Made by a program: the position numbers and the translations under genes. The notes beneath the pieces were generated by a model. It was given only the letters and a program-made list of their open reading frames with translations. It was not told where the DNA came from and did not search any database. Shown piece by piece: positions 5,187-34,584 of a stretch of 64,000 nucleotides of DNA. The stretch is from Deltaproteobacteria bacterium (GTDB lineage: Bacteria; Desulfobacterota; Desulfobacteria; Desulfobacterales; GCA-2748835): contig PDTL01000014.1 of the NCBI GenBank assembly GCA_002748835.1, positions 23,838 through 87,837 on the forward strand, read 5' to 3'. How positions within the stretch are numbered: position 1 is the first letter of the stretch; the number at the start of each line of letters is the position of its first letter.

Positions 5187-6599
5187 ATGTTTATGAGGTT
5201 TCATGTGCCGTGTGCGCGGGTTATCCTTCTGCTGGTCTTGTCACAGATCGCCAGTGCTGCATCGTTGCGTCCGGAATCAGCCCTCCCCCTGGAATTATCT
5301 CTGCAAGACGCCTGTCACATCTCCCTGGTGAAAAACAAGACCCTGAAATCCGCGATGAACAGTGTGACGCGTGCACGCATGCAACGTGAGGACCGGCAGG
5401 CGGATTTTTACTGGCACATCCGGCCGGATGGCGAACTGGGGACAGCCGATGGCGACGCCTATGCCGGCATGGGAGTGCTTGCAGAGCGGAAACTGGGCTG
5501 GGGGCCGGAGGTCCATATCAAACCGTATGCGGACCGATCTCCCACCCATTATGAGAGCGGCATTTCCGCAGGTCTCCAGGTACCGCTGCTCAGGGGCCGG
5601 GGACGACCCATTGTGATGGACGGAGTCATCACTGCAGAATTCAGCGAAACCCTGACGGGTTTAAGCCTTCAGCGAGCGCGAAGCAGCGTCCTTCTGGGGG
5701 TGATCGAGACCTACTACAAGGCGCGGCTTCAGGAATCCCTTCTGGAATTGTATGACACCCATTACCGTTTTATTGAAGCCCAGGTTGAAAAAGTGATTTT
5801 AAAGGAATCCATGGGGCTTGCCACGTCCATGGATGTGTATCGGGCCCATCAGCGGCTCAACGATGATGCGGACCGTATCGCGGAAGTAAAAAATCGGCTG
5901 GCTGGGTATGTGGACCAACTCAAAGAGCTGCTGTCCATGGATCTGGACTGCCCTGTCTGTCTGACCCCGGTGCCTGAATGTTCGTTTATCCTTCCGGAAG
6001 CAGCTGCGGCAGTGAAAACCGCCCTGGCAAATCGAATAGACGTCATCATCGCCGAGCGCTCTGTGAAAGAAGCGGCGCGTCAGGCTCGCTTGGCCCGCCA
6101 TACGCTGCTGCCCCAGCTGGATATGAACGTGAACTATCGCCAGTACGGCACAGGGGAGAGCATGAGCGAGGCGTCCCAACTGGACGAACACGCCTGGCGC
6201 ATTTCACTGGGAAGCACCACGGATTTTTTCCGGCGGGCTGAACGATCTGCCTATCGGCAGGAGTTGATCAACCTTCGGAATGCGGAATTATCCAGGGAGA
6301 CCGTCCGGCAGCAGGTAATCAAAGAGGTCAATGCCCGGCTGGAGTCGATAAAAAAAAACCAGGAACAGATGGTGCTGCGTCGGCAGGCGGAATCCGTTGC
6401 TGCGGGGAAAAAGGAATTGTCCCAGATCAAGTATATGCAGGGACTGTCGGATAACGCCGATACCATGGATGCGGAAGTGGAATCTCTTCAGGCACAGGAG
6501 AGCAGGATGACGGCCGAGGTCGATTATGCACTGGGTATCTATCAACTCCAGGCTGCCATGGGGATTCTGGAATCGTTTGTCATGGGTGAGGCGCCGTGA
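5187..6599 (+). CDS. TolC-family outer membrane efflux protein
   Basis: 470 aa with a signal peptide (ILLLVLSQIASAAS). It has two repeated helical halves with typical OEP-type heptad content. Its stop overlaps the next start (GTGA at 6596-6599). Confidence 0.75.
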   Translation: MFMRFHVPCARVILLLVLSQIASAASLRPESALPLELSLQDACHISLVKNKTLKSAMNSVTRARMQREDRQADFYWHIRPDGELGTADGDAYAGMGVLAERKLGWGPEVHIKPYADRSPTHYESGISAGLQVPLLRGRGRPIVMDGVITAEFSETLTGLSLQRARSSVLLGVIETYYKARLQESLLELYDTHYRFIEAQVEKVILKESMGLATSMDVYRAHQRLNDDADRIAEVKNRLAGYVDQLKELLSMDLDCPVCLTPVPECSFILPEAAAAVKTALANRIDVIIAERSVKEAARQARLARHTLLPQLDMNVNYRQYGTGESMSEASQLDEHAWRISLGSTTDFFRRAERSAYRQELINLRNAELSRETVRQQVIKEVNARLESIKKNQEQMVLRRQAESVAAGKKELSQIKYMQGLSDNADTMDAEVESLQAQESRMTAEVDYALGIYQLQAAMGILESFVMGEAP

Positions 6600-8059
6600 A
6601 AAAGTTGACCGGTTCACAGAAATGGCGGCTTGCTGGCCTCTGCGTGATTTCAGTCATTCTCCTGGCCATGGCAGTACGCATTCAGACGTGGATGAACGCC
6701 CGTCAAATGAACGACCTGCTGACGTGTCGGGCTGAACCGGCGTCGTTTTCCGTTCAGGTGGATACCATTGGTGTTCTGGATACCTCCCGTTCCCACATGG
6801 TGGCGTCATCGCTCCGGGGTGAGGAAGCGAAAATTATTTATCTGATCGAAGACGGCGCCCATGTGTCAAAAGGGGATCTGCTGATCCGGTTTGACAATAC
6901 GCCGTATGCGGAAAAAACCCGTCGCCTTGAAGGGGATGTGCGGACCCTCACGGCAGCGGTCCGTGCCAAGGAACAGGTACTGGCCTGGGAGCGGAACCAG
7001 GTTGAGAAATCCCTGAACACGGCAGCGTACAACATGAAGGTCGCGGTGCTGGAGCTTCGGAAGCTCAAAGAAGGAGACGGCCCCCTTCAAATTGCGACTC
7101 TGACCGAAGCCGTTAACGGGGCGGCAGGAGATCTTGAAAAGTATCGTGTTTATTTGGCGAAATTGATACAGCTTCAGGAACGGGGGTATGAAAACCTGGC
7201 AGAAGTGGCCCAGGCACGAAAAAAAATCGCCGAGTTCACAGAGAAGCTTGCCACAGCTGAAAAAAAGAAACAAAGTTATGAAAACCATGTGTTCCCGACC
7301 CTTGTGGAAGCCGCCAATGCCAGGGTGGAACGGGCGGACATGGAACAGGTGGCGCTGAAGACCGGCGGGACGTTCAAGATTGCCAAAGCCATGTCGGATC
7401 TTGAAGAGAGTCGGCAGCGGCTGATCACCGCACAGACTGCCCTTGCAGAAGCCGAAGCGGAACTCTCCCAGACCGAGTTGTACGCACCGTTTGCAGGCAT
7501 TGTTATCCTGTATGAAACCTACCGGGACGGGGAAAAACGCAAACCTCGGGTGGGGGATCGCGCCATCCGGAATCAGCCCATCTTGTATCTGCCGGATGTC
7601 ACCGCCATGGTAGTGAAAACCCAGATCCGGGAAATCGACCTGAAGAAAGTGTCTCTGGGAATGCCGGCAACCGTACGGGTGGATGCCTACCCGGACCAGA
7701 TGTTCAAGGGTACTGTCGGATTTGTGGGTGCACTTGCCACAGACCGCCCCATGAATGGTTTGGGCGGCAAGTATTTTCAGCTGTCCGTCATGCTTCCGGA
7801 TGCGGGCGATGATCTCCGTCCGGGCATGACCGCCCGGGTGACCCTGCATGCCGGAGAAATCTCCGCAGCCCGTGCCCTGCCCGTGGAAGCGGTTTTTGTT
7901 TCCGGCGGAAGAACGGTGGTCTTCCGGCAGACAGACCAGGGCTGGGAATCTGTGGCGGTGCAGACCGGTGCGGATAACGGGGACTGGGTCGAAATCCTGT
8001 CCGGGATATCCCTCGGGGATGTGATCTCCCGGGTACGCCCGGAAAAGAGGCTGCACTGA
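6596..8059 (+). CDS. HlyD/MacA-family periplasmic adaptor (membrane fusion protein)
   Basis: It has an N-terminal TM, a lipoyl-like half motif (GDLLIRFD ... LYAPFAGIV), a long coiled-coil insert and a beta-barrel C-terminus. There is a 1-nt overlap (ATGA type) with the ATPase start at 8059. Confidence 0.85.
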   Translation: MKKLTGSQKWRLAGLCVISVILLAMAVRIQTWMNARQMNDLLTCRAEPASFSVQVDTIGVLDTSRSHMVASSLRGEEAKIIYLIEDGAHVSKGDLLIRFDNTPYAEKTRRLEGDVRTLTAAVRAKEQVLAWERNQVEKSLNTAAYNMKVAVLELRKLKEGDGPLQIATLTEAVNGAAGDLEKYRVYLAKLIQLQERGYENLAEVAQARKKIAEFTEKLATAEKKKQSYENHVFPTLVEAANARVERADMEQVALKTGGTFKIAKAMSDLEESRQRLITAQTALAEAEAELSQTELYAPFAGIVILYETYRDGEKRKPRVGDRAIRNQPILYLPDVTAMVVKTQIREIDLKKVSLGMPATVRVDAYPDQMFKGTVGFVGALATDRPMNGLGGKYFQLSVMLPDAGDDLRPGMTARVTLHAGEISAARALPVEAVFVSGGRTVVFRQTDQGWESVAVQTGADNGDWVEILSGISLGDVISRVRPEKRLH

Positions 8060-8721
8060 TGCGTATCTGCCTTGAATCCATCAGTAAATCCTATCGTGTG
8101 GGCGGCCGCGACCTGGCCGTGCTCCGGGAGGTCGATTTCCGGGTGAAAACCGGAGAATTTGTTTCCATCTGCGGTCCTTCAGGCTCCGGAAAATCAACCC
8201 TCCTGCATATTATCGGACTCTTGGAAAAACCCGGCAGCGGTGCCTATCTGTTTGACGGCAAACCTGTCCAGGAAATGGACGATAACAGCCGGTCGCGGCT
8301 TCGGGCAGAAGCCATCGGTTTTGTGTTTCAGGCGTTTAATCTGGTGCCGACCCTGACTGTGCTGGAAAATGTGATGCTGCCGTTTCTCTACAACGACATG
8401 GATGCGGCATCGGCAAAAACGCGGAGTTGTCATGCGATTTCCCGGGTGGGGCTGACCTCCCGGATCAACCACCGGCCGAACATGCTGTCCGGCGGGGAAA
8501 TGCAGCGTGTCGCCATTGCCCGGGCCATTGCCACGCGGCCCCGCCTGATCCTGGCAGATGAACCCACAGGGAACCTTGATTCTGCCACGGGCAGCCGGAT
8601 TCTGGATATTTTTCAAGCCCTTCATGCCGAAGGATCGACATTGCTGCTCATCACCCATGATGCGGCCGTGGCAGCTCGCGCGTCCAGACGGGTCTTCATG
8701 GAGGACGGGATCCTTGTCTGA
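8059..8721 (+). CDS. ABC transporter ATP-binding protein (MacB/LolD family)
   Basis: Walker [11 protein letters not shown]-loop, signature [14 protein letters not shown], Walker [13 protein letters not shown] and H-loop ITHD. Confidence 0.92.
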
Positions 8722-9970
8722 TGTTTTGCGCCGTTCCGGTCACGGCATTGTTTCAGCCACCCGCAGCCTGACCCAGCACCGGCTCCGGTCCGGCCTGAGC
8801 ATTCTGGGGGTGATTTGCGGGGTCTCTGCCGTGGTGTCCATGCTGGCTGTGGGAGAAGGCGCAAAAGCCCGGGTCATGGAGCGGATCGATCGGCTGGGTG
8901 CGCGGAATATCTATATTTCAGATGCCGTATACACCGAAGCGCAGCGTGCGGAAGCCGGCATGCGGGCATCCAGGGGCCTGACCCTTGAGGATCTTGAGCA
9001 GATTCGGAACCACACCTCCCTGGTGAGCTCCGCCTCCGGGGTGATCCAGATCCAGAGCCGGGTTGCCGCAGAGAGCAGCGCTGAAGCGTCCGATGTTCTG
9101 GCCTGCAGCGCCAACTACAGGGCAGTGTACGGATGGAAACTTGCGGCCGGCCGGTTTCTCACGGATTTAGACAGCCGGGAGCAACGTCTGGTCTGCGTGC
9201 TGGGCCGCTCGGTGTCGGATGACCTGGGAGCGGAGGGACGCGTGGGCGCATTGCTGCGCATCGGCGGGCATCTGTTTACGGTCAAGGGCATCCTCGACAA
9301 CGTGGCAGACGCAGGGGAGGATTCGGCTGCGCTGGCCATGCGGGATGTGAACCAGATGATCCTGATCCCCCTTGAAAGTGCCGGTGCGCTGAACAGCGGA
9401 TCCACCCAGATCGACAACACCTCACGACTGTCTGAGATCCTTGTCAGGGTGGTTGCCGTGTCCCGGGTTCCGGAGGCTGCGGCACTGATTTCACGACTTC
9501 TGGAAAAACAGCATTTTGGTGCGGCAGACTACCGCATCCTGGTCCCCATGGAGCTGCTCAACGAGGCGCGCCAGACCCAGCGGACCTTTCATCTGATTCT
9601 GGCGGCCATTGCCGGAATTTCTCTGGTGGTCGGCGGCATCGGCATCATGAATATCATGTTGGCAACGGTTACGGAACGGACCCGGGAAATCGGGATCCGC
9701 CGGGCCGTGGGAGCGACGCGGAACGATATCGCTTATCAGTTTTTAAGCGAATCTCTGGTGCTGACCCTTACCGGCGGATGCGTCGGCCTTGCTGCCGGAA
9801 GCGCTGCTGCACGGATCATCACCCGGCTTGCCGGGTGGCCCACGGTGATTACGCTGTGGTCGGTGCTGCTCCCGTTTTTGCTGGCCATGGGCGTGGGCGT
9901 TGTGTTCGGTCTGTACCCGGCAATCAAGGCGGCACGCATGGATCCGATTTCAGCGCTTAGGTTTGGATGA
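8714..9970 (+). CDS. MacB-type ABC permease (FtsX/MacB_PCD family)
   Basis: The frame is that of track ORF 8558..9970, but the first ~50 codons overlap the ATPase gene. A TTG at 8714 lies 7 nt after GGAGGA and gives the typical N-terminus (..ATRSLTQHRLRSGLSILGVICGV). The layout is TM1, a large periplasmic domain, then 3 TMs of FtsX type. The start is uncertain by a few codons. Confidence 0.85.
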   Translation: MSDVLRRSGHGIVSATRSLTQHRLRSGLSILGVICGVSAVVSMLAVGEGAKARVMERIDRLGARNIYISDAVYTEAQRAEAGMRASRGLTLEDLEQIRNHTSLVSSASGVIQIQSRVAAESSAEASDVLACSANYRAVYGWKLAAGRFLTDLDSREQRLVCVLGRSVSDDLGAEGRVGALLRIGGHLFTVKGILDNVADAGEDSAALAMRDVNQMILIPLESAGALNSGSTQIDNTSRLSEILVRVVAVSRVPEAAALISRLLEKQHFGAADYRILVPMELLNEARQTQRTFHLILAAIAGISLVVGGIGIMNIMLATVTERTREIGIRRAVGATRNDIAYQFLSESLVLTLTGGCVGLAAGSAAARIITRLAGWPTVITLWSVLLPFLLAMGVGVVFGLYPAIKAARMDPISALRFG

Positions 9971-10370: not shown

Positions 10371-10637
10371 ATGAAAGTTGACATCAACGAACTGATGATT
10401 CGGGGTTATGTGGCTGCCGAAGACCGCCTGGACAGAGCGATTGAGCATGTGGCGACGAAGATTAAAGAGGAAAAAGGTGCCACGGCTGTGGAATATGCAC
10501 TTCTCACTGGCGTGATCGTCATCGGTGTCATATCCGCGTTTGCGTTTCTGCTTCCCAAGGATGAGGGAGACGAGGGGAACATGTTCACACAGACGTTTAA
10601 GATGATTATCCAGAAAGTCCAGGATTTTGTGCAGTAA
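10371..10637 (+). CDS. flp: Flp-type pilin 2
   Basis: GGAGGA RBS 5 nt before the ATG at 10371, which is an internal Met of track ORF 10182..10637. Classic Flp motif KG/ATAVEYALLTGVIVIGVI. The leader is unusually long (36 aa) and the C-terminal tail is acidic. Confidence 0.8.
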   Translation: MKVDINELMIRGYVAAEDRLDRAIEHVATKIKEEKGATAVEYALLTGVIVIGVISAFAFLLPKDEGDEGNMFTQTFKMIIQKVQDFVQ

Positions 10638-11081
10638 GTGTCGGAGGTGAATCGCATACATGCCCAGGTGCCTGTGTTGCAGCGTCACAAACCCGGAGTG
10701 ATAGACGATCACGGAGGGGTCACGGTTGAACTGGCGTTTACCCTGTTTCCGATTTTTCTCCTGTTTCTGGCGTTTGTTCAGGTCTCCGGTTTTTTGATCC
10801 TGCATGAAAAGGTGACGCTGGCCGCCAGCCTGGCATCGCGCAGTTACGGTATTCATATGAATGCCGGACAGGCGTATGAGAAGGCCGTTAGTGTTGTTTC
10901 CGGTGTTACCATGAAACAGTCCGGCAGCAGCGGCAGGGTCGAGACCCTGATTGAAAAAAAACAGCCGTTGTTTGAAGGATTCCGCCGAATCGCGTTTCCG
11001 GGACGCGCGGGTAAGCAGATGTCCGTATTCAAGGCGGTCTCGGCCTTTCAGGAAGACCAGAACCCCGGAGGAGACAACTGA
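10638..11081 (+). CDS. TadE-like pseudopilin
   Basis: N-terminal GGVTVELAFTLFPIFLLFLAF matches the TadE/TadF-type processed-pilin-like motif. The exact start (GTG 10638 or downstream GTG/TTG) is uncertain. The stop overlaps the next ATG (TGATG at 11079-11083). Confidence 0.6.
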   Translation: MSEVNRIHAQVPVLQRHKPGVIDDHGGVTVELAFTLFPIFLLFLAFVQVSGFLILHEKVTLAASLASRSYGIHMNAGQAYEKAVSVVSGVTMKQSGSSGRVETLIEKKQPLFEGFRRIAFPGRAGKQMSVFKAVSAFQEDQNPGGDN

Positions 11082-11965
11082 TGGCCGTATGCCCGGATCA
11101 CCGGCCCCTCCCCGGGATAATGGATGATGAAACGGGCGGTGCGGTACTGGTGGTGGTCTTTCTCATACCGGTTATGATTCTCATGATTCTGCTTATGTCG
11201 GATATGGGAAAAGTGGTTTTTTCCAAGATTCGGCTTCAGGCAGTGACGGATACGGCCATTCTGTCTGGTGCTGCGGTACAGGCAGCCGGCCTGAACGAAG
11301 TAGCGGATCTGAACAATGAATTACTAAAAGAAGCCCGGAAGTGCAAGGCGATACTTCAGAGTGGCATCTGGTACGGTTTCGGCCATGCGACCCGTGCGCG
11401 CACGTTTTTTACTGCCGGAAGCCCCAGAACCCCGCAGGGCGTACTCATGTACATCCGGAAGTATCAGCTGGATGCACTTGACGATTATGCGGCAGCTGCG
11501 ATTCGCGCTGTCCGGGAAGTGGTTCGGACCAATTTACCCGATGCAGTGATCAATTGGGGCATGTCCCGGTTTTCACAACCGCTCGCGCGGCTTCGGGAAA
11601 GCCGGCATGAGCAGGTTCGGTATCGCTATTATACGTCTCCATGTGACGGCTGCCCGCCCATACCGACGCTGCTATGGTTCACGCCGGACGCACCCATGTT
11701 CTCAGGCAGACATGACGGGCGGGTTTATTTTATGGCACTACGTGTGGGCGAAGCGAGTGGCCAGATCCGTATCTGCAGTTCTATGGCCAAATCCGGTCCC
11801 CCGACAAAAATTCGACTGGCAGTCGAACAACCGGTCGAGGATCTGTTTCTGGCAAAATTGTTGCGTGTACCGGAGCCGATCATCCGGTCTGTGGCTGAAG
11901 CAAAACCTGCGGGCGGTCATATCCGCGACCGGAAACCCTATTACAAGGCCGTGTTGATTAATTAG
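11081..11965 (+). CDS. TadG-like pilus assembly protein
   Basis: GGAGGAG RBS. N-terminus ETGGAVLVVVFLIPVMILMILLMSDMGKVV resembles the TadG N-terminal membrane segment. Size (294 aa) and position are consistent. Confidence 0.55.
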   Translation: MAVCPDHRPLPGIMDDETGGAVLVVVFLIPVMILMILLMSDMGKVVFSKIRLQAVTDTAILSGAAVQAAGLNEVADLNNELLKEARKCKAILQSGIWYGFGHATRARTFFTAGSPRTPQGVLMYIRKYQLDALDDYAAAAIRAVREVVRTNLPDAVINWGMSRFSQPLARLRESRHEQVRYRYYTSPCDGCPPIPTLLWFTPDAPMFSGRHDGRVYFMALRVGEASGQIRICSSMAKSGPPTKIRLAVEQPVEDLFLAKLLRVPEPIIRSVAEAKPAGGHIRDRKPYYKAVLIN

Positions 11966-12458: not shown

Positions 12459-13328
12459 ATGCAGAACCGGAAGGCGGTATTGATCTCGCTTGTATGTGCA
12501 CTGGTGGCCATGGTGATGGTCGTCTCCTATGTTTCACAGAAAGAGCGGCGCATCCTGCGCATGGCATCTCCGGTAAAGGTGGTGCTGGCAGCCAGGGATA
12601 TCCCGGAAGGGACAAGGCTTGACCGGTCCTGGCTCAAGGTGGCCAAGATCCCCAAAAAGTTCGTCCAGCCGGGTACGTCGGGAGATGTGGAAGACTGGCT
12701 GGGGAAAACCGTTGTCATTCCTGTCCTGAAAGATACCCAGGTGATGGAGCCCATGTTCTCGAGTTCCCGACAGGGGCGGTTTTCCGTCAAGGTGCCGCCA
12801 GATCAGCGGGCGTTCAGTGTGGCTGTGTCTGAGGTGTCGGCCGTGTCCGGGCTGATCGGACCGGGGGATTTTGTGGATGTCATGGTCACTGTGGAAGAAG
12901 GGGATATTGTGAACGGTCAGGCCGTGAGTCGGGACATCAAAACCCGGACCATTCTGCAGAACGCACTGGTTCTTGCCGTGAACCGGATTTATTCGGACAT
13001 GCGGTTCCGCCAGGCCTCCGACCTGAAGCAACAGTCCCGGGGAAGCCTGCTGGCATCCCCCACAGACGATGAACCGGCCATGGAAAAGTTGGACAACATC
13101 CGAACGGTGACCTTGTCACTGAGCCCCCAGGATGCGCAGAAAATGAGTCTGGCCCAGGAAATCGGATCGATTTCCCTGATGTTGAGATCAAGCTGGGATG
13201 AGAGCGGCGGCGCGGCACCCATTCCATCGATCAATGCACGGGAGTTTCTGGGCATCAAAAAAATGGTAATTCCGCGTTCGAGACCGGCGTGGGTAGAGAT
13301 CCGCGGTGCGGAGGAAGTGTACCGCTAA
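12459..13328 (+). CDS. cpaB: Flp pilus assembly protein CpaB/RcpC
   Basis: N-terminal TM (VLISLVCALVAMVMVV). SAF-like segment VKVVLAARDIPEGTRLDRSWLKVAKIPKKFV. RcpC-type beta-clip C-terminal region. Confidence 0.85.
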   Translation: MQNRKAVLISLVCALVAMVMVVSYVSQKERRILRMASPVKVVLAARDIPEGTRLDRSWLKVAKIPKKFVQPGTSGDVEDWLGKTVVIPVLKDTQVMEPMFSSSRQGRFSVKVPPDQRAFSVAVSEVSAVSGLIGPGDFVDVMVTVEEGDIVNGQAVSRDIKTRTILQNALVLAVNRIYSDMRFRQASDLKQQSRGSLLASPTDDEPAMEKLDNIRTVTLSLSPQDAQKMSLAQEIGSISLMLRSSWDESGGAAPIPSINAREFLGIKKMVIPRSRPAWVEIRGAEEVYR

Positions 13329-13344
13329 GTGCAAGGAGACAGAC

Positions 13345-14775
13345 ATGAAACTGCGACCCAATGACAGATGTCCGGCCCGGATGTCTCTGATACTTGTGAT
13401 GTTCATGATGGTTACCGGCTCGACTTGGGCCGCAACCCCGGTGAATGTGACCCAGGGCCAGAGCAAAACCCTTTCTGTGGGATTTACCATTGCAAAGGTG
13501 GCCACCGGAGACCCGTCCGTGTGCGGTGTGCTGAAAACCGCAGATCGGGAGTTGCTGGTCAATGCCAAACAGGCGGGCCGGACCAATGTAATTGTCTGGG
13601 GTGCTGACGGCTCCACGCGAGAATATGCGATTACCGTCACCGGATCCGGACTGACGATTACCGCAGGCGAACTGAAATCCCTGCTCTCCACGGTAGAGGG
13701 AGTGAGCGTGCGGCTGGTGGGTAGCCGGGTCCTGGTGGAAGGAGAAGTCTTCACCAAAAAAGACCTTGAAAGGGTCCGCCGGGTGACCCAGGGGTTGTCC
13801 AATGTCATCAACATGGTGGAACTCAGCCCCCTCATGAAGACCATTGTAAAAGACGAGATCGAAGGGGTGCTCAAGGACGAAGGCTTTTCCAACCTGCGGC
13901 TGAAGTTTGGAAAGAACAATTTTATCCTCACCGGCCAGGTGGGGAGTCAGGCAGAGATGGAACGGGCGCTTAAGCTGGCCGGGGCCTATGCCGCGGATAT
14001 CGTGAACGCCATTGAAGTGGATGACCGGATCGTGGAAACAAAGGCCGAGCTTATCGAGATGAGCCTGCAGGTTATGGAGATCGAAACCAGCGCGCTGAAG
14101 AATATGGGCATCCATTGGAACCCCGGCGGTTCCCTGGGAGGCTCCGGGAGTTATTCCGGCCAGTCGGGAAGCAAACCCTCCTTGAGCGGTTCCCTGACCG
14201 GGACCATATCTAGCCTGTTTCCGAAGATGAAACGGATTCAGGACACGGGCGCAGGAAGGTCTCTCATGGAACAGAGCCTCATCACCCAGAGTGGGGGAAC
14301 TGCAGACTTTTTTGCCGGCAGCGAAGTCCCGATACCGGTGGCCCAGGATGGCGGGAACATGAGTGTGGAATACAAGAAGGTAGGGGTGACCCTGGAATTC
14401 TCTCCGGTGATCGATCCTTTCGGTCGGGTGACCAGTCCGATTAAAATTGAAGCCAGTTCCGTGTCCGGCGAAGGGCCGGGAGGGGCGCCCGTCATCAGTA
14501 CATCCAAACTCAATACCATTGTCGGCCTTGAAAACGGGGAATCTGTAGCGCTGGCCGGCCTGGTGGGTCAAAAGGAAATGCGGCTGCTTTCCAAGTCCCC
14601 GCCCGGCGGTGGCAGCGCCCTGTTTCAGGCAAACAAGGAAACACTGAAAAGCGCGGACACACGTGAGGTGGTGATTTTCGTCACCCCGCGGATTCTGAGC
14701 CGTGCCGGAGACGGGGTGGACCGGATTCAACGGCGGGTGAAGGAAGGGTTCAAAGCCCAGGACCGTCAGGAGTAA
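13345..14775 (+). CDS. cpaC: CpaC/RcpA secretin
   Basis: I prefer the ATG at 13345, after GGAGAC, over the track start at 13306. It has a signal peptide and a pilus N-terminal domain (VNVTQGQSKTLSVG..VATGDPSV..NAKQAGRTNVIVWG). The secretin C-domain is SKLNTIVGLENGESVALAGLV...EVVIFVTPRIL. Confidence 0.9.
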   Translation: MKLRPNDRCPARMSLILVMFMMVTGSTWAATPVNVTQGQSKTLSVGFTIAKVATGDPSVCGVLKTADRELLVNAKQAGRTNVIVWGADGSTREYAITVTGSGLTITAGELKSLLSTVEGVSVRLVGSRVLVEGEVFTKKDLERVRRVTQGLSNVINMVELSPLMKTIVKDEIEGVLKDEGFSNLRLKFGKNNFILTGQVGSQAEMERALKLAGAYAADIVNAIEVDDRIVETKAELIEMSLQVMEIETSALKNMGIHWNPGGSLGGSGSYSGQSGSKPSLSGSLTGTISSLFPKMKRIQDTGAGRSLMEQSLITQSGGTADFFAGSEVPIPVAQDGGNMSVEYKKVGVTLEFSPVIDPFGRVTSPIKIEASSVSGEGPGGAPVISTSKLNTIVGLENGESVALAGLVGQKEMRLLSKSPPGGGSALFQANKETLKSADTREVVIFVTPRILSRAGDGVDRIQRRVKEGFKAQDRQE

Positions 14776-14822
14776 ACGGGGTGACACGTTAAGGTAAGAC
14801 AGATTGCAGGCAGGTTTGTCAG

Positions 14823-16886
14823 ATGGGCAGTGGTCAGGTCATTACGGTATATGGATCCAAGGGCGGCACAGGCAGAACCTTTGTGTCTGTCAACCTTGCG
14901 GTGGACCTGTTTATCACCACACGGCAGCCGGTTCTGCTGCTTGATTTTGTGCGACCGGTTTCTGTGGGTGTGAAGGCGATGCTGAACGCCTCTGGTATCC
15001 GTTTTGCGGATGCCATTCTGACCACAGCTCCGCAGCTGAAACCGGTGGTGCTTTCGTCGTATTTTACCCCCCATGACTCCGGCATTCAGCTCCTTGCCCT
15101 GACATCGGGAGAACGGCCGCTGGAAAACAGCGGGTATACCGGTGACACCGTACAGGGGCTGATCGGAAAACTCAAAGAACAGTTTGCGTTTCTGGTCATT
15201 GATGCAGGCAGCCGCTGGGATGAAGGGACCATTGCGCTGGTTGCCGCCTCGGATCGCGTGTTGATGGTGGTATCGCCAGAACTGGAGACGCTTGATCAGG
15301 CACGGGCGGATGTGGGTCGCCTGAGGCTCCAGAATTTTCCTGTGGGCGGCATCGGCGTGGTCCTGAACAAGGTGGGACTCAAGGGCGGGGCGGATGTGCC
15401 GGCAGCTGAGCGGGCACTGAAGCTGCCATCCATGGCGGCCATACCCTATCATGAAGATGTGCTCTCCCTGCAGTGGGCTGGACCGTTCCCCTCCCATCAC
15501 AAGCGGCACGCGGTGAACCGGGGACTTCAAGGGGTGACCACCGCCCTGCTGCAGTCTTTTGGAAACACCCCTCCCGTAGCCCGGGCATCGGCTGCTGCGT
15601 CAGCGGAGACCCATCCTGCGGATCAGCTGAAGCTGACCATTCACCGGAAACTGCTCTCGACCATTGATTTTAAAAAGCTTGATACGGAAGTTGAAAACGA
15701 TCCGGTGAAAAAAGAGGAGCTGGAGCGTGAGGTTCGCCGGGTGGCCGTGGCCCTGATTGACGAGCTTGCTCCCCACCTGGTCAGGGAGGAAAGGAACACC
15801 CTGCTGCGGCAGGTGATCCAGGAAACCCTGGGCCTGGGTCCGCTGGAGGATTTGCTCGCGGACACGGACATCACCGAGATCATGGTCAACCGGTGGGACC
15901 AGATCTACATTGAACGATCCGGACGCCTGATCGAAACCGGGCTCCAGTTTTTTTCAGACGCGCATCTGGTGAACATCATTGGCCGCATTGTCGGTCCCCT
16001 TGGACGTAAAATCGATATCAGCACGCCCATGGTCGATGCCCGGCTCCCAGACGGTTCCCGTGTAAATGCCGTGATCCCGCCCCTTGCCATCAACGGTGCC
16101 TCGCTGACCATCCGTAAATTTGCCCAGGAGCGGCTGAACATGGAGGCTCTCGAAGCCTTCGGATCCCTGAACCGCCAGGTGGCCGAATTTCTCATGGCGG
16201 CGGTGTGCGCCCGTCTGAACATTGTGGTGTCCGGCGGTACGGGCAGCGGTAAGACCACGCTGCTCAACATCCTGTCCGGCTATATCCCGGAAGGTGAACG
16301 GATTATTACGATTGAGGACTCTGCGGAACTCAAATTGCATCAGCCCCATGTGGTGCCCCTGGAATGCCGGCCCCCGAACATTGAGGGAAAGGGTGAGATC
16401 ACGATCCGGGATCTGCTCCGCAACGCCCTTCGCATGCGGCCAGACCGGATTGTGGTGGGCGAGTGCCGGGGCGGGGAAGCCCTTGACATGCTACAGGCCA
16501 TGAACACAGGGCATGACGGGTCCATGACCACCATCCATGCCAACACTACCCAGGAAGCCCTTGCGCGGATCGAGACCCTGGTCATGTATACGGGATTCGA
16601 ACTTCCGTCACGGGGCATCAAGGAACAGATCGCCGGTGCCGTGGATCTGATTATCCAGGTCAAACGATTCAAGGACGGGAGCCGGAAGCTGATCCAGGTG
16701 AGTGAGCTCCGGGGCATCTCGGAAGACCGGATCCGCATTGATGACGTGTTCCTGTTCAACCAGATCGATGAGGTGGACGGCACCCCCAGGGGCATGCATG
16801 TGGCCACCGGTTTTGTGCCGGAATCAGTACAGCGGTTCCAGGAAAAAGGGATTCATCTGCCCAGGGAACTGTTCTGGGCCAACTGA
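14823..16886 (+). CDS. cpaF: fusion of TadZ/CpaE-like ParA/MinD domain with CpaF/TadA secretion ATPase
   Basis: Residues ~1-250 look ParA/MinD-like: [21 protein letters not shown] is a deviant Walker A with Arg in place of the usual Lys, and LVIDAG follows. Residues ~270-687 are a full CpaF: Walker [15 protein letters not shown], Asp/Glu boxes ITIEDSAEL, Walker [13 protein letters not shown] and His box [13 protein letters not shown]. It is one uninterrupted ORF. Confidence 0.9.
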
Positions 16887-16986: not shown

Positions 16987-18210
16987 TTGCAAGTGAACTG
17001 GATATATTTTGCCATTGTGTTTGTGCTGATCTGGGTGGTGGTTTATCTCCTTGTCAAAGAGCGGACCGGCCTGTTCTCTCAGAAGCTGGATCAGGAAACA
17101 GAAAAAATAACCGCCATGCTTGATGCCCTGTTCATGGTAGCGCGGCCATCCTTGATCCGGAAGGCGGTTGTCTGCTGTTGTCTCGTCGGCGTCTTCACGG
17201 GGATCGTGATGCCCGGTCTGATTGCCGATATTGACGTGAAAGCGACCGTCAGCAAAGCAATTTCGCTGAATCAGTCAGGGGACCACGAGGCGGTGCTCGC
17301 GTTACTGGATGGCAGCGAAAAACGTGTTTCTCCGCTGCTTCAGAACGAACTCGGCGTCGCCTACGCGGGCACCGGAAATTACGGGCTGGCAGAGCAGGCG
17401 TTCAAAAATGCACTGGATACAGTACCGGAATATGTGCCGGCGCGGGTGAACCTGGCCGGGGTCTACATGAAGCTGGGACGGCTGGAAACGGCGGGTTTTG
17501 AACTGGCACGGGCACGGGAATATGATGAAATCCCGCTGTCCGAAACCGCAGTGATTGGCAAACCCCGGCAAGAAGACCGGTGGATCATCTCCGCTGTACT
17601 GGCGCTAATACTCGGGGTGATCGGTTACCGGATACCCGGATGGGGATTGGCTTGGCTGAAGAATCGGCGCCTCAGCAGATTCGAGGACCAGCTGGCTGAC
17701 GGGCTGGTCATGGTCTCTAACGGGCTCAAGGCCGGATTGAACCTGACCCAGGCATTTGAAAATGTCAGCCGGGAAGGTGACCCGCCACTGGCCCAGGAGT
17801 TCTCGCTGGTGCTCAAGGAAACCCGGCTGGGCTATGATCTGGATGATGCTCTGATAAGGCTCTCTGCGAGAATGCCCACGGATGATACTAAACTGCTGGT
17901 GAACTCCATCCTGATTCTGCGGGAAAGCGGGGGAAATCTGGCATCCATTTTTGATACCCTGGTTCACACGATCAATGAACGGAAACGGGTGCTGAAAAAA
18001 ATCAAGACCATGACGGCCGAAGGAGAGACCCAGGCCTATATGCTGGCGGTCCTCCCCCTGGCACTCGGATTTCTGCTCTCGCGTCTCACGCCGGATGTAT
18101 TTGCACTCATGTACACCACGTTTTTTGGATGGTGCCTGATCGCACTCATGGTCCTCATGGAGGGGATCGGTTTGATCTGGATGCTGAAAACGGTGAAAGT
18201 GAAGATCTGA
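16987..18210 (+). CDS. tadB: TPR-containing TadB-like platform protein (single T2SS-F domain)
   Basis: N-terminal TM, then TPR-like repeats (ELGVAYAGTGNYGLAEQAFKNALDTVPEYVPARVNLAGVYMKLGRLETA). A T2SSF domain follows (GLKAGLNLTQAFENVS...DDALIRLSARMPTDD...ESGGNLASIFDTL...KTMTAEGETQAYMLAVLPL). The start is TTG 16987 or GTG 16993. Confidence 0.85.
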   Translation: MQVNWIYFAIVFVLIWVVVYLLVKERTGLFSQKLDQETEKITAMLDALFMVARPSLIRKAVVCCCLVGVFTGIVMPGLIADIDVKATVSKAISLNQSGDHEAVLALLDGSEKRVSPLLQNELGVAYAGTGNYGLAEQAFKNALDTVPEYVPARVNLAGVYMKLGRLETAGFELARAREYDEIPLSETAVIGKPRQEDRWIISAVLALILGVIGYRIPGWGLAWLKNRRLSRFEDQLADGLVMVSNGLKAGLNLTQAFENVSREGDPPLAQEFSLVLKETRLGYDLDDALIRLSARMPTDDTKLLVNSILILRESGGNLASIFDTLVHTINERKRVLKKIKTMTAEGETQAYMLAVLPLALGFLLSRLTPDVFALMYTTFFGWCLIALMVLMEGIGLIWMLKTVKVKI

Positions 18211-31663: not shown

Positions 31664-31738
31664 TCGTCCGGATTTTAATGAATTTTCTGTGAAATGTGCT
31701 ATACTGTTTTATCACTCATGAACAGGGAGAAACCAATC

Positions 31739-33820
31739 ATGAAAATACATGTCAAACCATGGATGTATGCGGCCCTTGCTGCCATCTGTACGGTCATCGT
31801 GGGGGCGGGCGCGGCGGCAGCTGATGAAAACGTCCTGATTTTGGTCAACCCCCAGGCCGGATCCGGCAGCGGGGTGAGCGTCCAGGTGGTGAACGGGGCT
31901 GATGGCGGCGTGGATACCATGGCCATTGAAAACGAACTGGCCCGGGGTCTGATGGAGAACGGGTATACGGCGACACTGGGCAGCGAGCTCATGTCCGGCC
32001 GGGATCTGAGTGAGAAGGAAGTCGAAAAGGCACGCACCGGGAACATGCAGCTGCTTAAAAAAGCTGCGGCCCTTCACGATGCCGGCGTATTTTGCGTGGC
32101 GAAGGTTTCTTCCCGCATGTCCACGGAATCGGTTCTGGGTATGGAGATGACACGGGCAGACCTTACGCTCTCCTACCGGATCTACGACACCATCACTGGA
32201 AAAAATATTGCCCGGAATGTACTGAAATTTTCAAACGCCGACCGGTCTCCGGGTGCGACCTTGAATGCCCTATATGCGAAGATGGCAGACGGATTTGCCG
32301 CAGATGTGGCTGGAAAAGTGGCTAAGGATGTTTCTTCCAGCCGCCGGAAAGCCATGGCAAAAGCCAAAAAATCGTACAGGAAAAAAGTGGTGGTAGCGGC
32401 AAAACCCAAGTCAAGACCCAAACCCGCGGCTGCGCCGTCACCGGCCATAACGGAAAACCTGAAAATTGTCATTGTGAATCCCCCCCTGGGGCGCGGCTTT
32501 ACGATTAAGGAAAAAAGGAAGACCATCTCCCTTGAAGGGATGGTCGTGGATCCCAGCGGTGCCGGCGTGTCCCATGTCATGGTCAACAACACTGCCGCCA
32601 ATCTCGCTTCAGACGGGCGCTTTACCTACCCGCTGACCCTGAGTGCCGGCGCTAATACCATCGATATTCTGGCCGTGAACCGGCAGGGAAAAACCGCGCG
32701 CAAACAGATCACCCTGAACAGGGCGTTAGACACCCTGCCACCGGTGATCCGAATCACTCAGCCGGTGATTACCCGTGGGTTTAAAACCGTTGTTAAACCC
32801 AAGGCCTCTTATTTGAAAGTCAGCGGCACGGTGACCGACGACAGTGAAATTCTTTTTGTGAAAATCAATGGGTCACCTGTGGTTCTGGGTTCTGGAGGCG
32901 CATTTTCCACCAATCTGCCGCTGGATTCTGCAGCGCGCTCGGAAATCAGGGTGGCGTCGTCAGATGTGCACGGGAATGTGAGCCATAAAGAGATTCCCAT
33001 CACTCGGGGTGTGGCAGCTACATCCTCACCCGCACCCGCTTACCCGTCCGCTGCCGGATTCCGGCCGGTGCTCTGGGGACTTTCGGTGGGGGTGTCTGAT
33101 TATAAATCCGGAATGATTGATCTCGAATATGCGGATGATGACGCCAAGCTGATTGCGGATTTTTTCAGTCGCAAAGGAAAAGGGATTTTTCACAAGGTCC
33201 AGTTTAAGACTCTGCTGAATACCGATGTTACCCGGGACAGCATCATTGATGCCATGACCACCCACCTGGGAAAAGCCGGACCCGATGATGTGGTGATGAT
33301 TTTTGTGGCCGGCCACGGGATCAAGCACCGGCAAACCGGTTCTTATTATTTTGTGCCGTCAGACGCGGACGGTGACTCCCTCATCTCCAGAGGGCTGCGC
33401 ATGTCCGATTTTGAGGAGTCGATCAAAATTCTCTCCCAGAACGTGAACAAGGTGATCGTTGCCATGGATACCTGCCACTCGGGTGCCATGCAGATCGGCC
33501 TCCGGGGTGCGGAATCCGAAAGCCTTGCCGAGAAGCTGAAAGCCGCATCCGGCCTCTATATTCTCGCAGCATCAAAGAGCGGTGAAAGCTCCATGGAAGG
33601 AAAAGACTTTCGGATTGACGGAGACAAGGGGCACGGCGTATTCACGTATGCCCTGATCAACGGTATGCGCGGTGCTGCGAATTTTGACCAGGATACCTAT
33701 GTCTCTTTGAACGAGGTTTTTCATTATGTGGCAAAAGAAGTACCGGTGCTGACCAACGGACGGCAGCACCCGTATCAGAAAGTGGATGGGAATGATCTCC
33801 CCCTGGTGCGTTTGAAATAG
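31739..33820 (+). CDS. exported caspase-like (peptidase C14) protein with N-terminal LpoB/CsgG-like module and Ig-like middle region
   Basis: ATG at 31739, 8 nt after AGGGAGA. Signal peptide WMYAALAAICTVIVGAGAAAA. C14 pattern LSVGVSDYKS...YADDDAKLIADFF...VMIFVAGHGI (His) ...VIVAMDTCHSGAM (Cys). Confidence 0.85.
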   Translation: MKIHVKPWMYAALAAICTVIVGAGAAAADENVLILVNPQAGSGSGVSVQVVNGADGGVDTMAIENELARGLMENGYTATLGSELMSGRDLSEKEVEKARTGNMQLLKKAAALHDAGVFCVAKVSSRMSTESVLGMEMTRADLTLSYRIYDTITGKNIARNVLKFSNADRSPGATLNALYAKMADGFAADVAGKVAKDVSSSRRKAMAKAKKSYRKKVVVAAKPKSRPKPAAAPSPAITENLKIVIVNPPLGRGFTIKEKRKTISLEGMVVDPSGAGVSHVMVNNTAANLASDGRFTYPLTLSAGANTIDILAVNRQGKTARKQITLNRALDTLPPVIRITQPVITRGFKTVVKPKASYLKVSGTVTDDSEILFVKINGSPVVLGSGGAFSTNLPLDSAARSEIRVASSDVHGNVSHKEIPITRGVAATSSPAPAYPSAAGFRPVLWGLSVGVSDYKSGMIDLEYADDDAKLIADFFSRKGKGIFHKVQFKTLLNTDVTRDSIIDAMTTHLGKAGPDDVVMIFVAGHGIKHRQTGSYYFVPSDADGDSLISRGLRMSDFEESIKILSQNVNKVIVAMDTCHSGAMQIGLRGAESESLAEKLKAASGLYILAASKSGESSMEGKDFRIDGDKGHGVFTYALINGMRGAANFDQDTYVSLNEVFHYVAKEVPVLTNGRQHPYQKVDGNDLPLVRLK

Positions 33821-33870
33821 GCTTATCGACTGTTCATTGAAACATGGAAAGATGCGGAAAGGAGTGGCGC

Positions 33871-34584
33871 ATGCGCCTTGAGAAAAAAGAAGAAAGACTA
33901 AAACAGCGTCTCAGCTGGATGCTGTTGTTCCTTATTTTCGTGCTGACCACAGGATGCGTTGCCAGCAGTCAGCCGTCAGCACCGCCGCTGCCGCCGGCCA
34001 ATGATACGCAGGTGAATATGCGGGATCTTCCCTATCCGAACGGAAAACGGGCGCTTGTTGCCATTGCCGGTTTTGAGAACAAGAGTACCTATTCTGCTGA
34101 CCGACTCTGGGATACATCGTCCCGGCTTCTCGCCTCCGCATTGATACAGGCCAACTATTTCCGGGTGGTGGAATGGGAAAAAATGAAGCAGCTCTTTGAC
34201 TGGGACACACTCTCCAACGCCAGCCTTGTGAAATCGCCGGACGATCTGAAACGGGCTCAGCGGATTCTTTTGTGTGAATATTTTGTCACCGGCACCATCA
34301 CGTTCTTCAATATCAAGCAGCATGCCCAGGTGAGCGCCATGTCCAAATCCAAAGTACTGGATACCACGGTCCGTGTCGATTTGCTGCTGCAGGACGCACG
34401 CACCGGAGAATATCTGAGCGCATCCAACGGTGAGCACACGGTGCGCCAGTCGTACACAGCAGGCATGTCCGGCGGTCAGACCGGCAGCTGGGACAGCCAC
34501 TCCGGTGATGAAGCCCTGTCACAGGCCATTAACAAAGCCCTGTATAACCTGGTGTTGAATTTTCATTCCAGGCGACGTGGATAA
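33871..34584 (+). CDS. CsgG-family lipoprotein
   Basis: ATG at 33871 after AAGGAG. Lipobox VLTTGC. CsgG-like core VAIAGFENKSTYSADRLWDTSSRLLASALIQANYFRVVEWEKM...YFVTGTITFFN...VRVDLLLQDARTGEY. Confidence 0.75.
   Translation: MRLEKKEERLKQRLSWMLLFLIFVLTTGCVASSQPSAPPLPPANDTQVNMRDLPYPNGKRALVAIAGFENKSTYSADRLWDTSSRLLASALIQANYFRVVEWEKMKQLFDWDTLSNASLVKSPDDLKRAQRILLCEYFVTGTITFFNIKQHAQVSAMSKSKVLDTTVRVDLLLQDARTGEYLSASNGEHTVRQSYTAGMSGGQTGSWDSHSGDEALSQAINKALYNLVLNFHSRRRG

Follow-up and report, generated by a model that had tools for sequence, protein, structure and literature searches.

A receiver-less TadZ-like ParA/MinD domain joined to a CpaF/TadA motor in a Tad-like pilus operon of a Deltaproteobacteria bacterium

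The gene analysed here lies at 14823..16886 (+) of a 64,000-nucleotide stretch of DNA (the window, within which all positions are given) from a metagenome-assembled genome (MAG) of a Deltaproteobacteria bacterium (assembly GCA_002748835.1, contig PDTL01000014.1, positions 23,838 to 87,837 of the forward strand). Our analysis makes it quite likely that its product combines, in one chain, a ParA/MinD domain of the TadZ/CpaE type that has no receiver domain, a linker of about 17-25 residues and a complete hexameric CpaF/TadA motor. This degree of confidence applies to the explanation as a whole, that is, jointly to a fusion of the TadZA type, to the replacement of a standalone TadZ and to a nucleotide-bound docking collar as the role of the fused domain. 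A fusion of TadZ to CpaF is already on record for one organism, and sequence databases contain many, the present gene being a further example.

The open reading frame (ORF) starts with ATG and comprises 687 codons plus a stop, with no internal stop codon. An earlier note on this DNA, made from the sequence alone, had described it as one uninterrupted frame whose first 250 or so residues are ParA/MinD-like and whose remainder is a complete CpaF/TadA ATPase, and this description was borne out for both halves. The ParA/MinD-fold domain occupies residues 1-247 (14823..15563, +), as judged by Pfam, AlphaFold2, Foldseek and a family profile compared with the PDB, and it scores above the Pfam cut-offs for CbiA (PF01656, residues 7-213, 30.5 bits against a cut-off of 25.4) and AAA_31 (residues 5-154, 27.3 bits against 27). 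The AlphaFold2 model of residues 1-335 has a predicted local distance difference test value (pLDDT) of 88.9 and a predicted template modelling score (pTM) of 0.86, and it shows the ParA/MinD fold over residues 1-247 and helices over residues 265-334, with residues 250-262 disordered (pLDDT <50). This disordered segment is part of a flexible linker rich in Ala, Ser and Pro (about residues 248-264, 15564..15614, +), delimited by pLDDT within the open frame, and its length differs from homologue to homologue.

The motor half begins with the N-terminal helical bundle of CpaF (residues 265-334, 15615..15824, +; from the AlphaFold2 helices and the alignment to 9e24) and continues with the N-terminal and catalytic domains of CpaF/TadA (15825..16883, +; from Pfam T2SSE, the alignment to 8rkd and a motif scan). 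It matches T2SSE (PF00437) over residues 337-612 with an E value of 2e-65 and is collinear with the solved Caulobacter crescentus CpaF (8rkd, E 6e-113; 8rjf and 9e24, also E about 1e-112). The alignment to 9e24 pairs residues 270-665 of the window protein with CpaF 86-476 and starts in the helical bundle, where K270 and H274 are invariant across the family alignment. The motif scan found all four motor motifs on the + strand: Walker A (residue 471, 16233-16259), the Asp box IEDSAE (residue 497, 16311-16328), Walker B DRIVVGE (residue 541, 16443-16463) and the His box TGHDG (residue 562, 16506-16520). The likeness to Caulobacter CpaF thus begins at the helical bundle, reaches the C-terminal domain and includes every catalytic motif; the difference lies in front of the bundle, where Caulobacter CpaF has about 85 residues and the window protein has the ParA-like domain and linker. 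The TadA-family model TIGR03819 (NCBIfam) covers residues 298-627 with 326 bits. Since this is below the curated cut-off of 373 and the model represents a specific, conjugal-transfer-associated subfamily, the protein is not filed under it, and the general assignment to CpaF is based on the alignment to the PDB structures.

An apparent fusion might be produced by a missed stop codon or a frameshift near 15550-15650 that joined a separate tadZ to a separate cpaF, a danger that the earlier note had itself located at the junction. The public annotation of the same MAG could be taken to favour such an artefact. The sole identical public protein (P0001, 'CSA22_02535', a hypothetical protein of a Deltaproteobacteria MAG) has 484 residues that correspond exactly to residues 204-687, and the deposited annotation begins at the internal Met204, leaving out residues 1-203 (window 14823-15431). 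However, this start lies inside the ParA fold and away from the junction, and we therefore regard it as a miscalled start codon and not as a sign of two genes. Across the junction (nt 15400-15700) the coding frame contains no stop codon as opposed to six in each of the other frames. Moreover, when the protein was compared with a 5.8-billion-protein collection, about 100 of the 120 best matches had 682-750 residues, with 42-53% identity and 97-100% query coverage, so that collinearity across the junction is seen in about 100 protein clusters drawn from many samples. The precomputed domains of these full-length homologues are ParA/CbiA/AAA_31 followed by T2SSE, showing that the combination of the two domains is widespread, and one of them carries the JGI name 'CpaE/pilus assembly protein CpaF'. 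Their sources include Desulfococcaceae, Desulfobacteraceae, Desulfosalsimonadaceae, Desulfonatronovibrio magnus, Desulfolutivibrio, Solidesulfovibrio and Vicinamibacteria. A survey of loci, in which one genome per species was scanned with an alignment of five close N-part sequences, gave 79 loci, and in 32 of these, from independent genomes, the ParA-like and CpaF parts share one stop-free frame in which the ParA-like domain begins at residue about 1. The artefact is already effectively refuted by these observations, and we give it practically no chance. An antisense ORF of 254 aa (14766..15530), which overlaps the part missing from the public annotation, was also weighed as a rival gene and dismissed, as the sense frame is conserved as protein in more than 100 homologues.

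With regard to the identity of the N-terminal domain, the most informative evidence comes from its unfused relatives. A HMMER search with residues 1-335 against 1.84 billion representatives gave 498 matches at E<=1e-10; among the top 150, most are proteins of about 400 aa in which the match begins at about residue 130-160, and about 11 are fused proteins in which it begins at residue about 1. Similarly, 33 of the 79 surveyed loci encode a homologue of 380-430 aa with an N-terminal extension of 120-165 residues, directly upstream of a separate cpaF, and Pfam scores these standalone proteins as Response_reg (true or degenerate) followed by AAA_31/ParA. Because the unfused relatives are receiver-plus-ParA-like proteins encoded directly upstream of cpaF, the N-terminal domain corresponds to the ATPase-like half of TadZ/CpaE, and the genomic context settles this assignment. 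It agrees with structural comparisons at the family level: a profile built from 19 diverse fused N-parts matched 3ea0 best in the PDB (E 3e-39, 138 bits), with 103 bits for the best MinD and E 1e-6 for Eubacterium rectale TadZ (ErTadZ, 3fkq). Foldseek also ranked 3ea0 first for the N-domain model (TM 0.84 on target), followed by MinD, FleN, FlhG and Soj, the matches to 3ea0, MinD, FleN and Soj having E values of 1e-12 to 1e-8. The 3ea0 protein ('ParA family ATPase' of Chlorobium tepidum, 245 aa), which we take to be a TadZ orthologue from a tad locus, is thus the best solved relative by both profile and fold. Like the window domain it has no receiver, and it combines a lysine-less P-loop of the family type (KGGDGGS) with a D-x-S-x-P switch I (D-I-S-L-P) that has no second Asp; unlike the window domain it stands alone and is not joined to a motor.

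The same searches also bear on a different origin, in which the domain would be a generic positioning or number-control ATPase of the MinD/FlhG/FleN type that was recruited independently of TadZ/CpaE. In the single-sequence search against the PDB the best matches were archaeal MinD (1g3q, 9e-9), then FleN and Soj; Foldseek places MinD, FleN and FlhG just behind 3ea0 and well above ErTadZ; and the NCBIfam model minD_arch matches residues 109-213 at 1.5e-11. Other NCBIfam matches, all below threshold, were to the actinobacterial CpaE homologue Ssd (residues 3-238) and to MinD. On the other hand, two very large searches both gave the receiver-plus-ParA-like proteins upstream of cpaF, the canonical TadZ/CpaE arrangement, as the closest unfused relatives, and in the family profile 3ea0, whose KGGDGGS is of TadZ style, outscores the best MinD by 35 bits. 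In addition, the Walker A motif of the window protein agrees with the published TadZ consensus (bioRxiv 10.64898/2026.07.08.737194). We consider an independent recruitment very unlikely on these grounds. Membership in NF047398 ('KGGVGR-motif variant AAA ATPase', NCBIfam) was likewise rejected, the match over residues 5-42 scoring 19.7 bits against a curated cut-off of 90.

A derivation from TadZ does not imply that the whole of TadZ is present. No receiver or atypical receiver domain (ARD) precedes the ParA-like fold of the window protein, which starts at residue about 4, and in terms of sequence the protein is TadZ-derived yet lacks the receiver domain of canonical full-length TadZ. It shares with canonical TadZ/CpaE (Aggregatibacter TadZ, Caulobacter CpaE and ErTadZ) the ParA/MinD fold, a variant deviant Walker A motif and a place in a tad locus just ahead of the tadA/cpaF coding sequence. 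The canonical proteins, however, are separate, have about 380-430 residues and carry an N-terminal (atypical) receiver, whereas the window domain is receiver-less and joined to the motor. Caulobacter CpaE has also been reported to end in an amphipathic membrane helix (PMC13170226), whereas the last helix of the window fold runs straight into the disordered linker. A second ParA-like sequence was found neither in the 64-kb window nor in any of the 32 fused loci (flanks up to ±10 kb), and we conclude from this that the fused domain replaces a standalone TadZ and does not supplement it. The earlier statement that a TadZ/CpaE-type protein and CpaF are combined in a single polypeptide is therefore upheld by the full-length homologues, by the fused loci and by the missing separate TadZ nearby. 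The accompanying statement that the fusion hard-wires the localisation and docking factor to the motor holds for the ATPase-like half of TadZ, which is indeed fused, and is overstated for localisation, because the receiver-like localisation domain is absent and because the fused TadZ and linker of Bdellovibrio need an external partner, RomR.

The ATP site of the ParA-like domain deviates from the canonical one at two places. The deviant Walker A motif KGGTGRT (residues 13-19, 14859..14879, +) keeps the signature Lys13 and has Arg18 instead of the canonical Lys, and switch I (D41-F-V43, 14943..14951, +; from alignments to MinD and FleN) keeps the Mg-site Asp and has Val in place of the second Asp of the Asp-x-Asp pair (DxD). 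The Walker B region LVIDAG (residues 124-129, 15192..15209, +) contains the family-invariant D127. Column statistics were obtained for 107 full-length family members, the window protein included. The signature Lys (position 13) is K in 94 and R in 10 of these, while the canonical Walker Lys (position 18) is K in 66, A in 22 and R in 12, with a few Q, T and S. Position 43 is occupied by G (57), S (32) or T (7), together 96 of the 107 members. The Walker A motif varies by group, being KGGVGKS/T in the nearest relatives, RGGVGRT in the Desulfovibrionales type and KGGGGAS in Vicinamibacteria, and the standalone TadZ proteins have K, T, C, V, A or R at the Walker Lys position. The DxD pair is kept only in distant members, namely the fused proteins of Omnitrophota and Bdellovibrionales and standalone TadZ proteins of the Firmicutes type; the few distant members with DxD include P0107, P0108, P0112 and P0117. 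Accordingly, the Lys-to-Arg exchange that the earlier note had singled out is real and is no special signature: Arg18 is one state of an unconstrained site. In contrast to this variable site, G15, G17, N24, D41 and D127 are invariant in 19 diverse members and G14 is nearly so, indicating that the nucleotide/Mg site is still under selection.

In MinD, FleN and Soj the second Asp of DxD activates the attacking water, and the D44A exchange in Soj is a classic hydrolysis-dead mutant that traps the dimer. Walker A K-to-R mutants such as RecA K72R bind ATP and hydrolyse it poorly. Judged from these residues, a loss of hydrolysis is better supported by the missing catalytic Asp of switch I than by the K-to-R exchange alone. 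The domain probably retains ATP binding and formation of a sandwich dimer, with hydrolysis being very slow or lost, and the view of the earlier note that it binds nucleotide but does not hydrolyse it appears plausible. A published Walker A-like consensus for TadZ, K/RGGXGXS/T, does not require the Lys (bioRxiv 10.64898/2026.07.08.737194).

Two other readings of this site have to be weighed. One holds that the ParA-like domain is a working ATPase switch whose hydrolysis drives dynamic relocalisation of the motor, with Arg18 standing in for the Lys. The TadZA protein of Bdellovibrio is highly dynamic and moves from pole to pole in less than a second (bioRxiv 10.64898/2026.07.08.737194), as such a switch might. 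Signature Lys13, Thr19, Asp41 and Asp127 are all kept in the window protein, and the full catalytic set of KGGVGKT plus DxD is present in distant fused members. The window protein itself, however, has neither the canonical Lys nor the water-activating Asp, and the RecA and Soj mutants mentioned above are those in which these very positions were altered and hydrolysis was poor or the dimer trapped. ErTadZ is also reported, in a later paper that cites the primary TadZ studies, to bind ATP for dimerisation (PMC13170226). We find a working switch unlikely in this protein. The other reading goes in the opposite direction and regards the domain as a nucleotide-free pseudo-ATPase, a purely structural appendage with a decaying P-loop. 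It is in line with the drift of the Walker Lys position through K, R, A, Q, T and S, with a signature Lys that is sometimes R or S, and with a window N-half that is far more diverged (31-38% identity) than the C-half (about 60-64%). A decaying P-loop fits poorly with the invariant residues around the nucleotide, and ErTadZ, with a similarly degenerate motif, is stated in the same later paper still to bind ATP (PMC13170226). This pseudo-ATPase reading is rather doubtful in our opinion.

The most likely role of the N-terminal domain, as far as its residues can indicate, is that of a nucleotide-bound dimerisation and docking collar on each motor subunit that hydrolyses ATP slowly or not at all. 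The properties of TadZ used here are taken from later papers that cite the primary TadZ studies; according to these, TadZ binds ATP for dimerisation (PMC13170226), and its N-terminal receiver-like domain is credited in the literature with polar localisation. In Caulobacter, CpaE is required for localisation of the secretin, and in the fit to in-situ maps the CpaF hexamer is surrounded by six dimers of CpaE (PMC13170226). The fusion would have taken over the job of the standalone TadZ. As a covalent connection, it would fix the helper domain and the motor subunit at 1:1 and hence give six helper domains per hexamer, compared with the 12 CpaE molecules modelled in Caulobacter. The kept residues Lys13, Thr19, Asp41 and Asp127 would allow binding of ATP-Mg and an ATP-sandwich dimer, whereas the loss of the Walker Lys (Arg18) and of the water-activating Asp (Val43) would make hydrolysis slow or abolish it. 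It is this double loss that leads us to favour a collar over a cycling positioning ATPase. As the receiver-like domain is missing, a positional cue, if there is any, would come via a separate partner, as with RomR in Bdellovibrio.

Some points weigh against the proposed explanation. No TadZ-specific model underlies the assignment to TadZ, which draws on the nearest relatives, the genomic context and the similarity of profiles. ErTadZ was not matched by the single-sequence search with the N-domain at E<=1, and it appears only at rank 47 by fold in Foldseek. Nucleotide binding, dimerisation and loss of ATPase activity are all read from residues. The Walker Lys is kept in most close relatives, and since the distant fused members of Omnitrophota and Bdellovibrionales keep both this Lys and DxD, the family is not uniformly inactive.

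The closest described counterpart is the 'atypical TadZA fusion ATPase' from tad locus 1 of Bdellovibrio bacteriovorus, reported in a preprint of July 2026 (bioRxiv 10.64898/2026.07.08.737194). In TadZA, an N-terminal TadZ region that has no ARD is followed by a flexible linker and, at the C-terminus, by TadA. The TadZ part together with the linker is both necessary and sufficient for binding RomR, a polar hub protein with a degenerate receiver domain of its own (bioRxiv 10.64898/2026.07.08.737194). For comparison we used P0123, a protein annotated 'TadA' that comes from a Bdellovibrionales MAG and hence stands for a Bdellovibrionales homologue, not for the TadZA protein studied in strain HD100; residues 19-687 of the window protein align with its residues 22-716 at 41% identity (E 4e-171). 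The window protein resembles TadZA in being a single chain of receiver-less TadZ, linker and TadA with no separate TadZ, in a Walker A motif that fits K/RGGXGXS/T, and in that its N-domain and those of the Bdellovibrionales fused proteins fall in one clade. It differs in three respects. The Bdellovibrionales proteins keep the full set of KGGVGKS plus DFD/DMD, as opposed to KGGTGRT plus DFV in the window protein; the window host is a Desulfobacterota-like MAG and not a predator; and the window protein has a much shorter linker, P0123 being alignable only with about 18 extra residues there, so that the interface to a partner may differ from that in Bdellovibrionales.

The distribution of the fusion was examined with a midpoint-rooted neighbour-joining tree of 245 ParA-like domains, calculated without support values, in which 61 of the 62 fused proteins fall in one clade that is free of receiver-bearing TadZ. 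The tree weakly suggests that the fusion is mainly of single origin and would derive from a short, 3ea0-like TadZ. The one fused protein outside the main clade, a 718-aa ParA-like plus CpaF protein from a Bacillota MAG (locus L079, 10001-12150), may represent an independent fusion event. The state of the ATP site also forms a series. Omnitrophota and Bdellovibrionales have K together with DxD, most Desulfobacterota have K without the second Asp, the window protein has R without the second Asp, in Desulfovibrionales both Walker A lysines are replaced by R and the second Asp is gone, and Vicinamibacteria have A. Tentatively, receiver-less TadZ-CpaF might be an old lineage of essentially single origin, present in at least five phylum-level groups (Desulfobacterota, Bdellovibrionota, Omnitrophota, Acidobacteriota and MAGs labelled Planctomycetota), that replaced standalone TadZ everywhere and whose ATP site decayed stepwise; the domain would then have shifted from a hydrolysis-driven switch to a nucleotide-locked collar, with the window protein at a late stage. 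We regard this broader scenario as possible and no better than that.

Other composite proteins were noticed in the same family searches. Most of the proteins P0002-P0006, P0019, P0066 and P0074 (584-919 aa) contain the CpaF Walker A motif (GGTGSGKT) twice, at a spacing of about 360 residues, and these appear to be tandem CpaF-CpaF fusions, another kind of motor fusion. P0132 (899 aa), P0167 (814 aa) and P0214 (1077 aa) were considered as triple fusions of receiver, ParA and CpaF and rejected, as Pfam finds no T2SSE in these proteins of 814-1077 aa. They are TadZ-like, with a ParA-like domain from about residue 142-148 and, in two of them, a Pfam receiver match, and the extensions at their C-termini (400-680 residues) match no Pfam family and are distinct from CpaF. 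The three proteins represent a further elaboration of TadZ.

In the window, the fusion gene is placed between the secretin and platform genes of a Tad-like pilus operon, all on the + strand. The operon begins with a probable Flp prepilin (10371..10637; Pfam Flp_Fap and translation, start codon inferred) that shows the processing motif G/ATAVEYALL, and continues with a TadE-like minor pilin (10638-11081, Pfam) and a TadG/Tad-like minor pilin (11081-11965, Pfam). A 126-aa protein without an assigned family separates the latter from CpaB/RcpC (12459-13328), which is followed by the secretin CpaC/RcpA (13306-14775) directly upstream of the fusion; both were identified by Pfam and are syntenic in relatives. 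Directly downstream of the fusion comes the platform protein (16987..18210), which has a single T2SSF domain (residues 244-362) and an N-terminal TPR region (about residues 118-180), a layout that recurs with 41-46% identity in the Desulfobacterota-type fused loci. The TPR modules of Tad systems are usually separate proteins of the TadD type. A prepilin peptidase (Peptidase_A24/TadV/CpaA) was not seen among the Pfam-scanned ORFs of window 10000-37200, a scan that left small ORFs and the rest of the window outside, and the tad loci of Bdellovibrio have likewise been reported without one (bioRxiv 10.64898/2026.07.08.737194). Immediately upstream of the operon (5187-9970, +) is a tripartite efflux set made up of OEP, HlyD-like, ABC ATPase and MacB-FtsX proteins.

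Beyond the platform gene, the same strand encodes a transglutaminase-like protein, a 1214-aa protein of no assigned family, a thioredoxin-like protein and a PilB/GspE-like ATPase with an MshEN domain, and then a second single-domain T2SSF protein, three FHA proteins, a Ser/Thr kinase, a caspase-domain protein and a CsgG-like protein. From the TadG-like gene to the kinase, nearly the whole gene order is kept in the Desulfobacterota-type fused loci, forming a conserved cluster of about 20 kb (window 11081-31663, +) with syntenic loci L001, L003, L004, L005, L006, L009, L012, L013, L014 and L016. The genes directly after the kinase (31694-34584, +) encode a 708-aa caspase-domain (Peptidase_C14) protein with Glucodextran_B-like repeats and then the CsgG-like lipoprotein. 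This Tad-like system, which has two ATPases and is tied to FHA/kinase signalling, is reminiscent of the Kil system of Myxococcus xanthus, whose KilF is an FHA-CpaF fusion (PMC8460266). KilF resembles the window protein as a CpaF motor with an N-terminal regulatory or adaptor domain in an FHA-rich Tad-like locus (PMC8460266), and the window cluster has, similarly, its three FHA proteins and Ser/Thr kinase. The two differ in the appendage, which is an FHA domain in KilF and not a ParA-like one, and in the number of ATPases: only one is reported for the Kil system, and the window cluster adds a PilB-like ATPase to the fused motor.

The positioning of the Tad motor and its coupling to the ParA-like helper are under active investigation, and in-situ maps from 2025-26 assign 12 CpaE molecules to each CpaF hexamer. 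A natural 1:1 fusion without a receiver offers a minimal system for those TadZ functions (docking, dimerisation and ATP sensing) that are intrinsic to the ATPase-like domain, and the natural variants of the active site (K, R or A, with or without the catalytic Asp) are open to direct comparison. As judged by the present survey, the 'atypical' TadZA of Bdellovibrio is no predator-specific oddity but belongs to a broad family. The architecture is easily overlooked, since a miscalled start codon hides the N-terminal domain in the public annotation and automated names within the family range from 'MinD' to 'CpaF'. The value of the window gene lies mainly in the breadth that it demonstrates for this family and in the natural variation of the active site.

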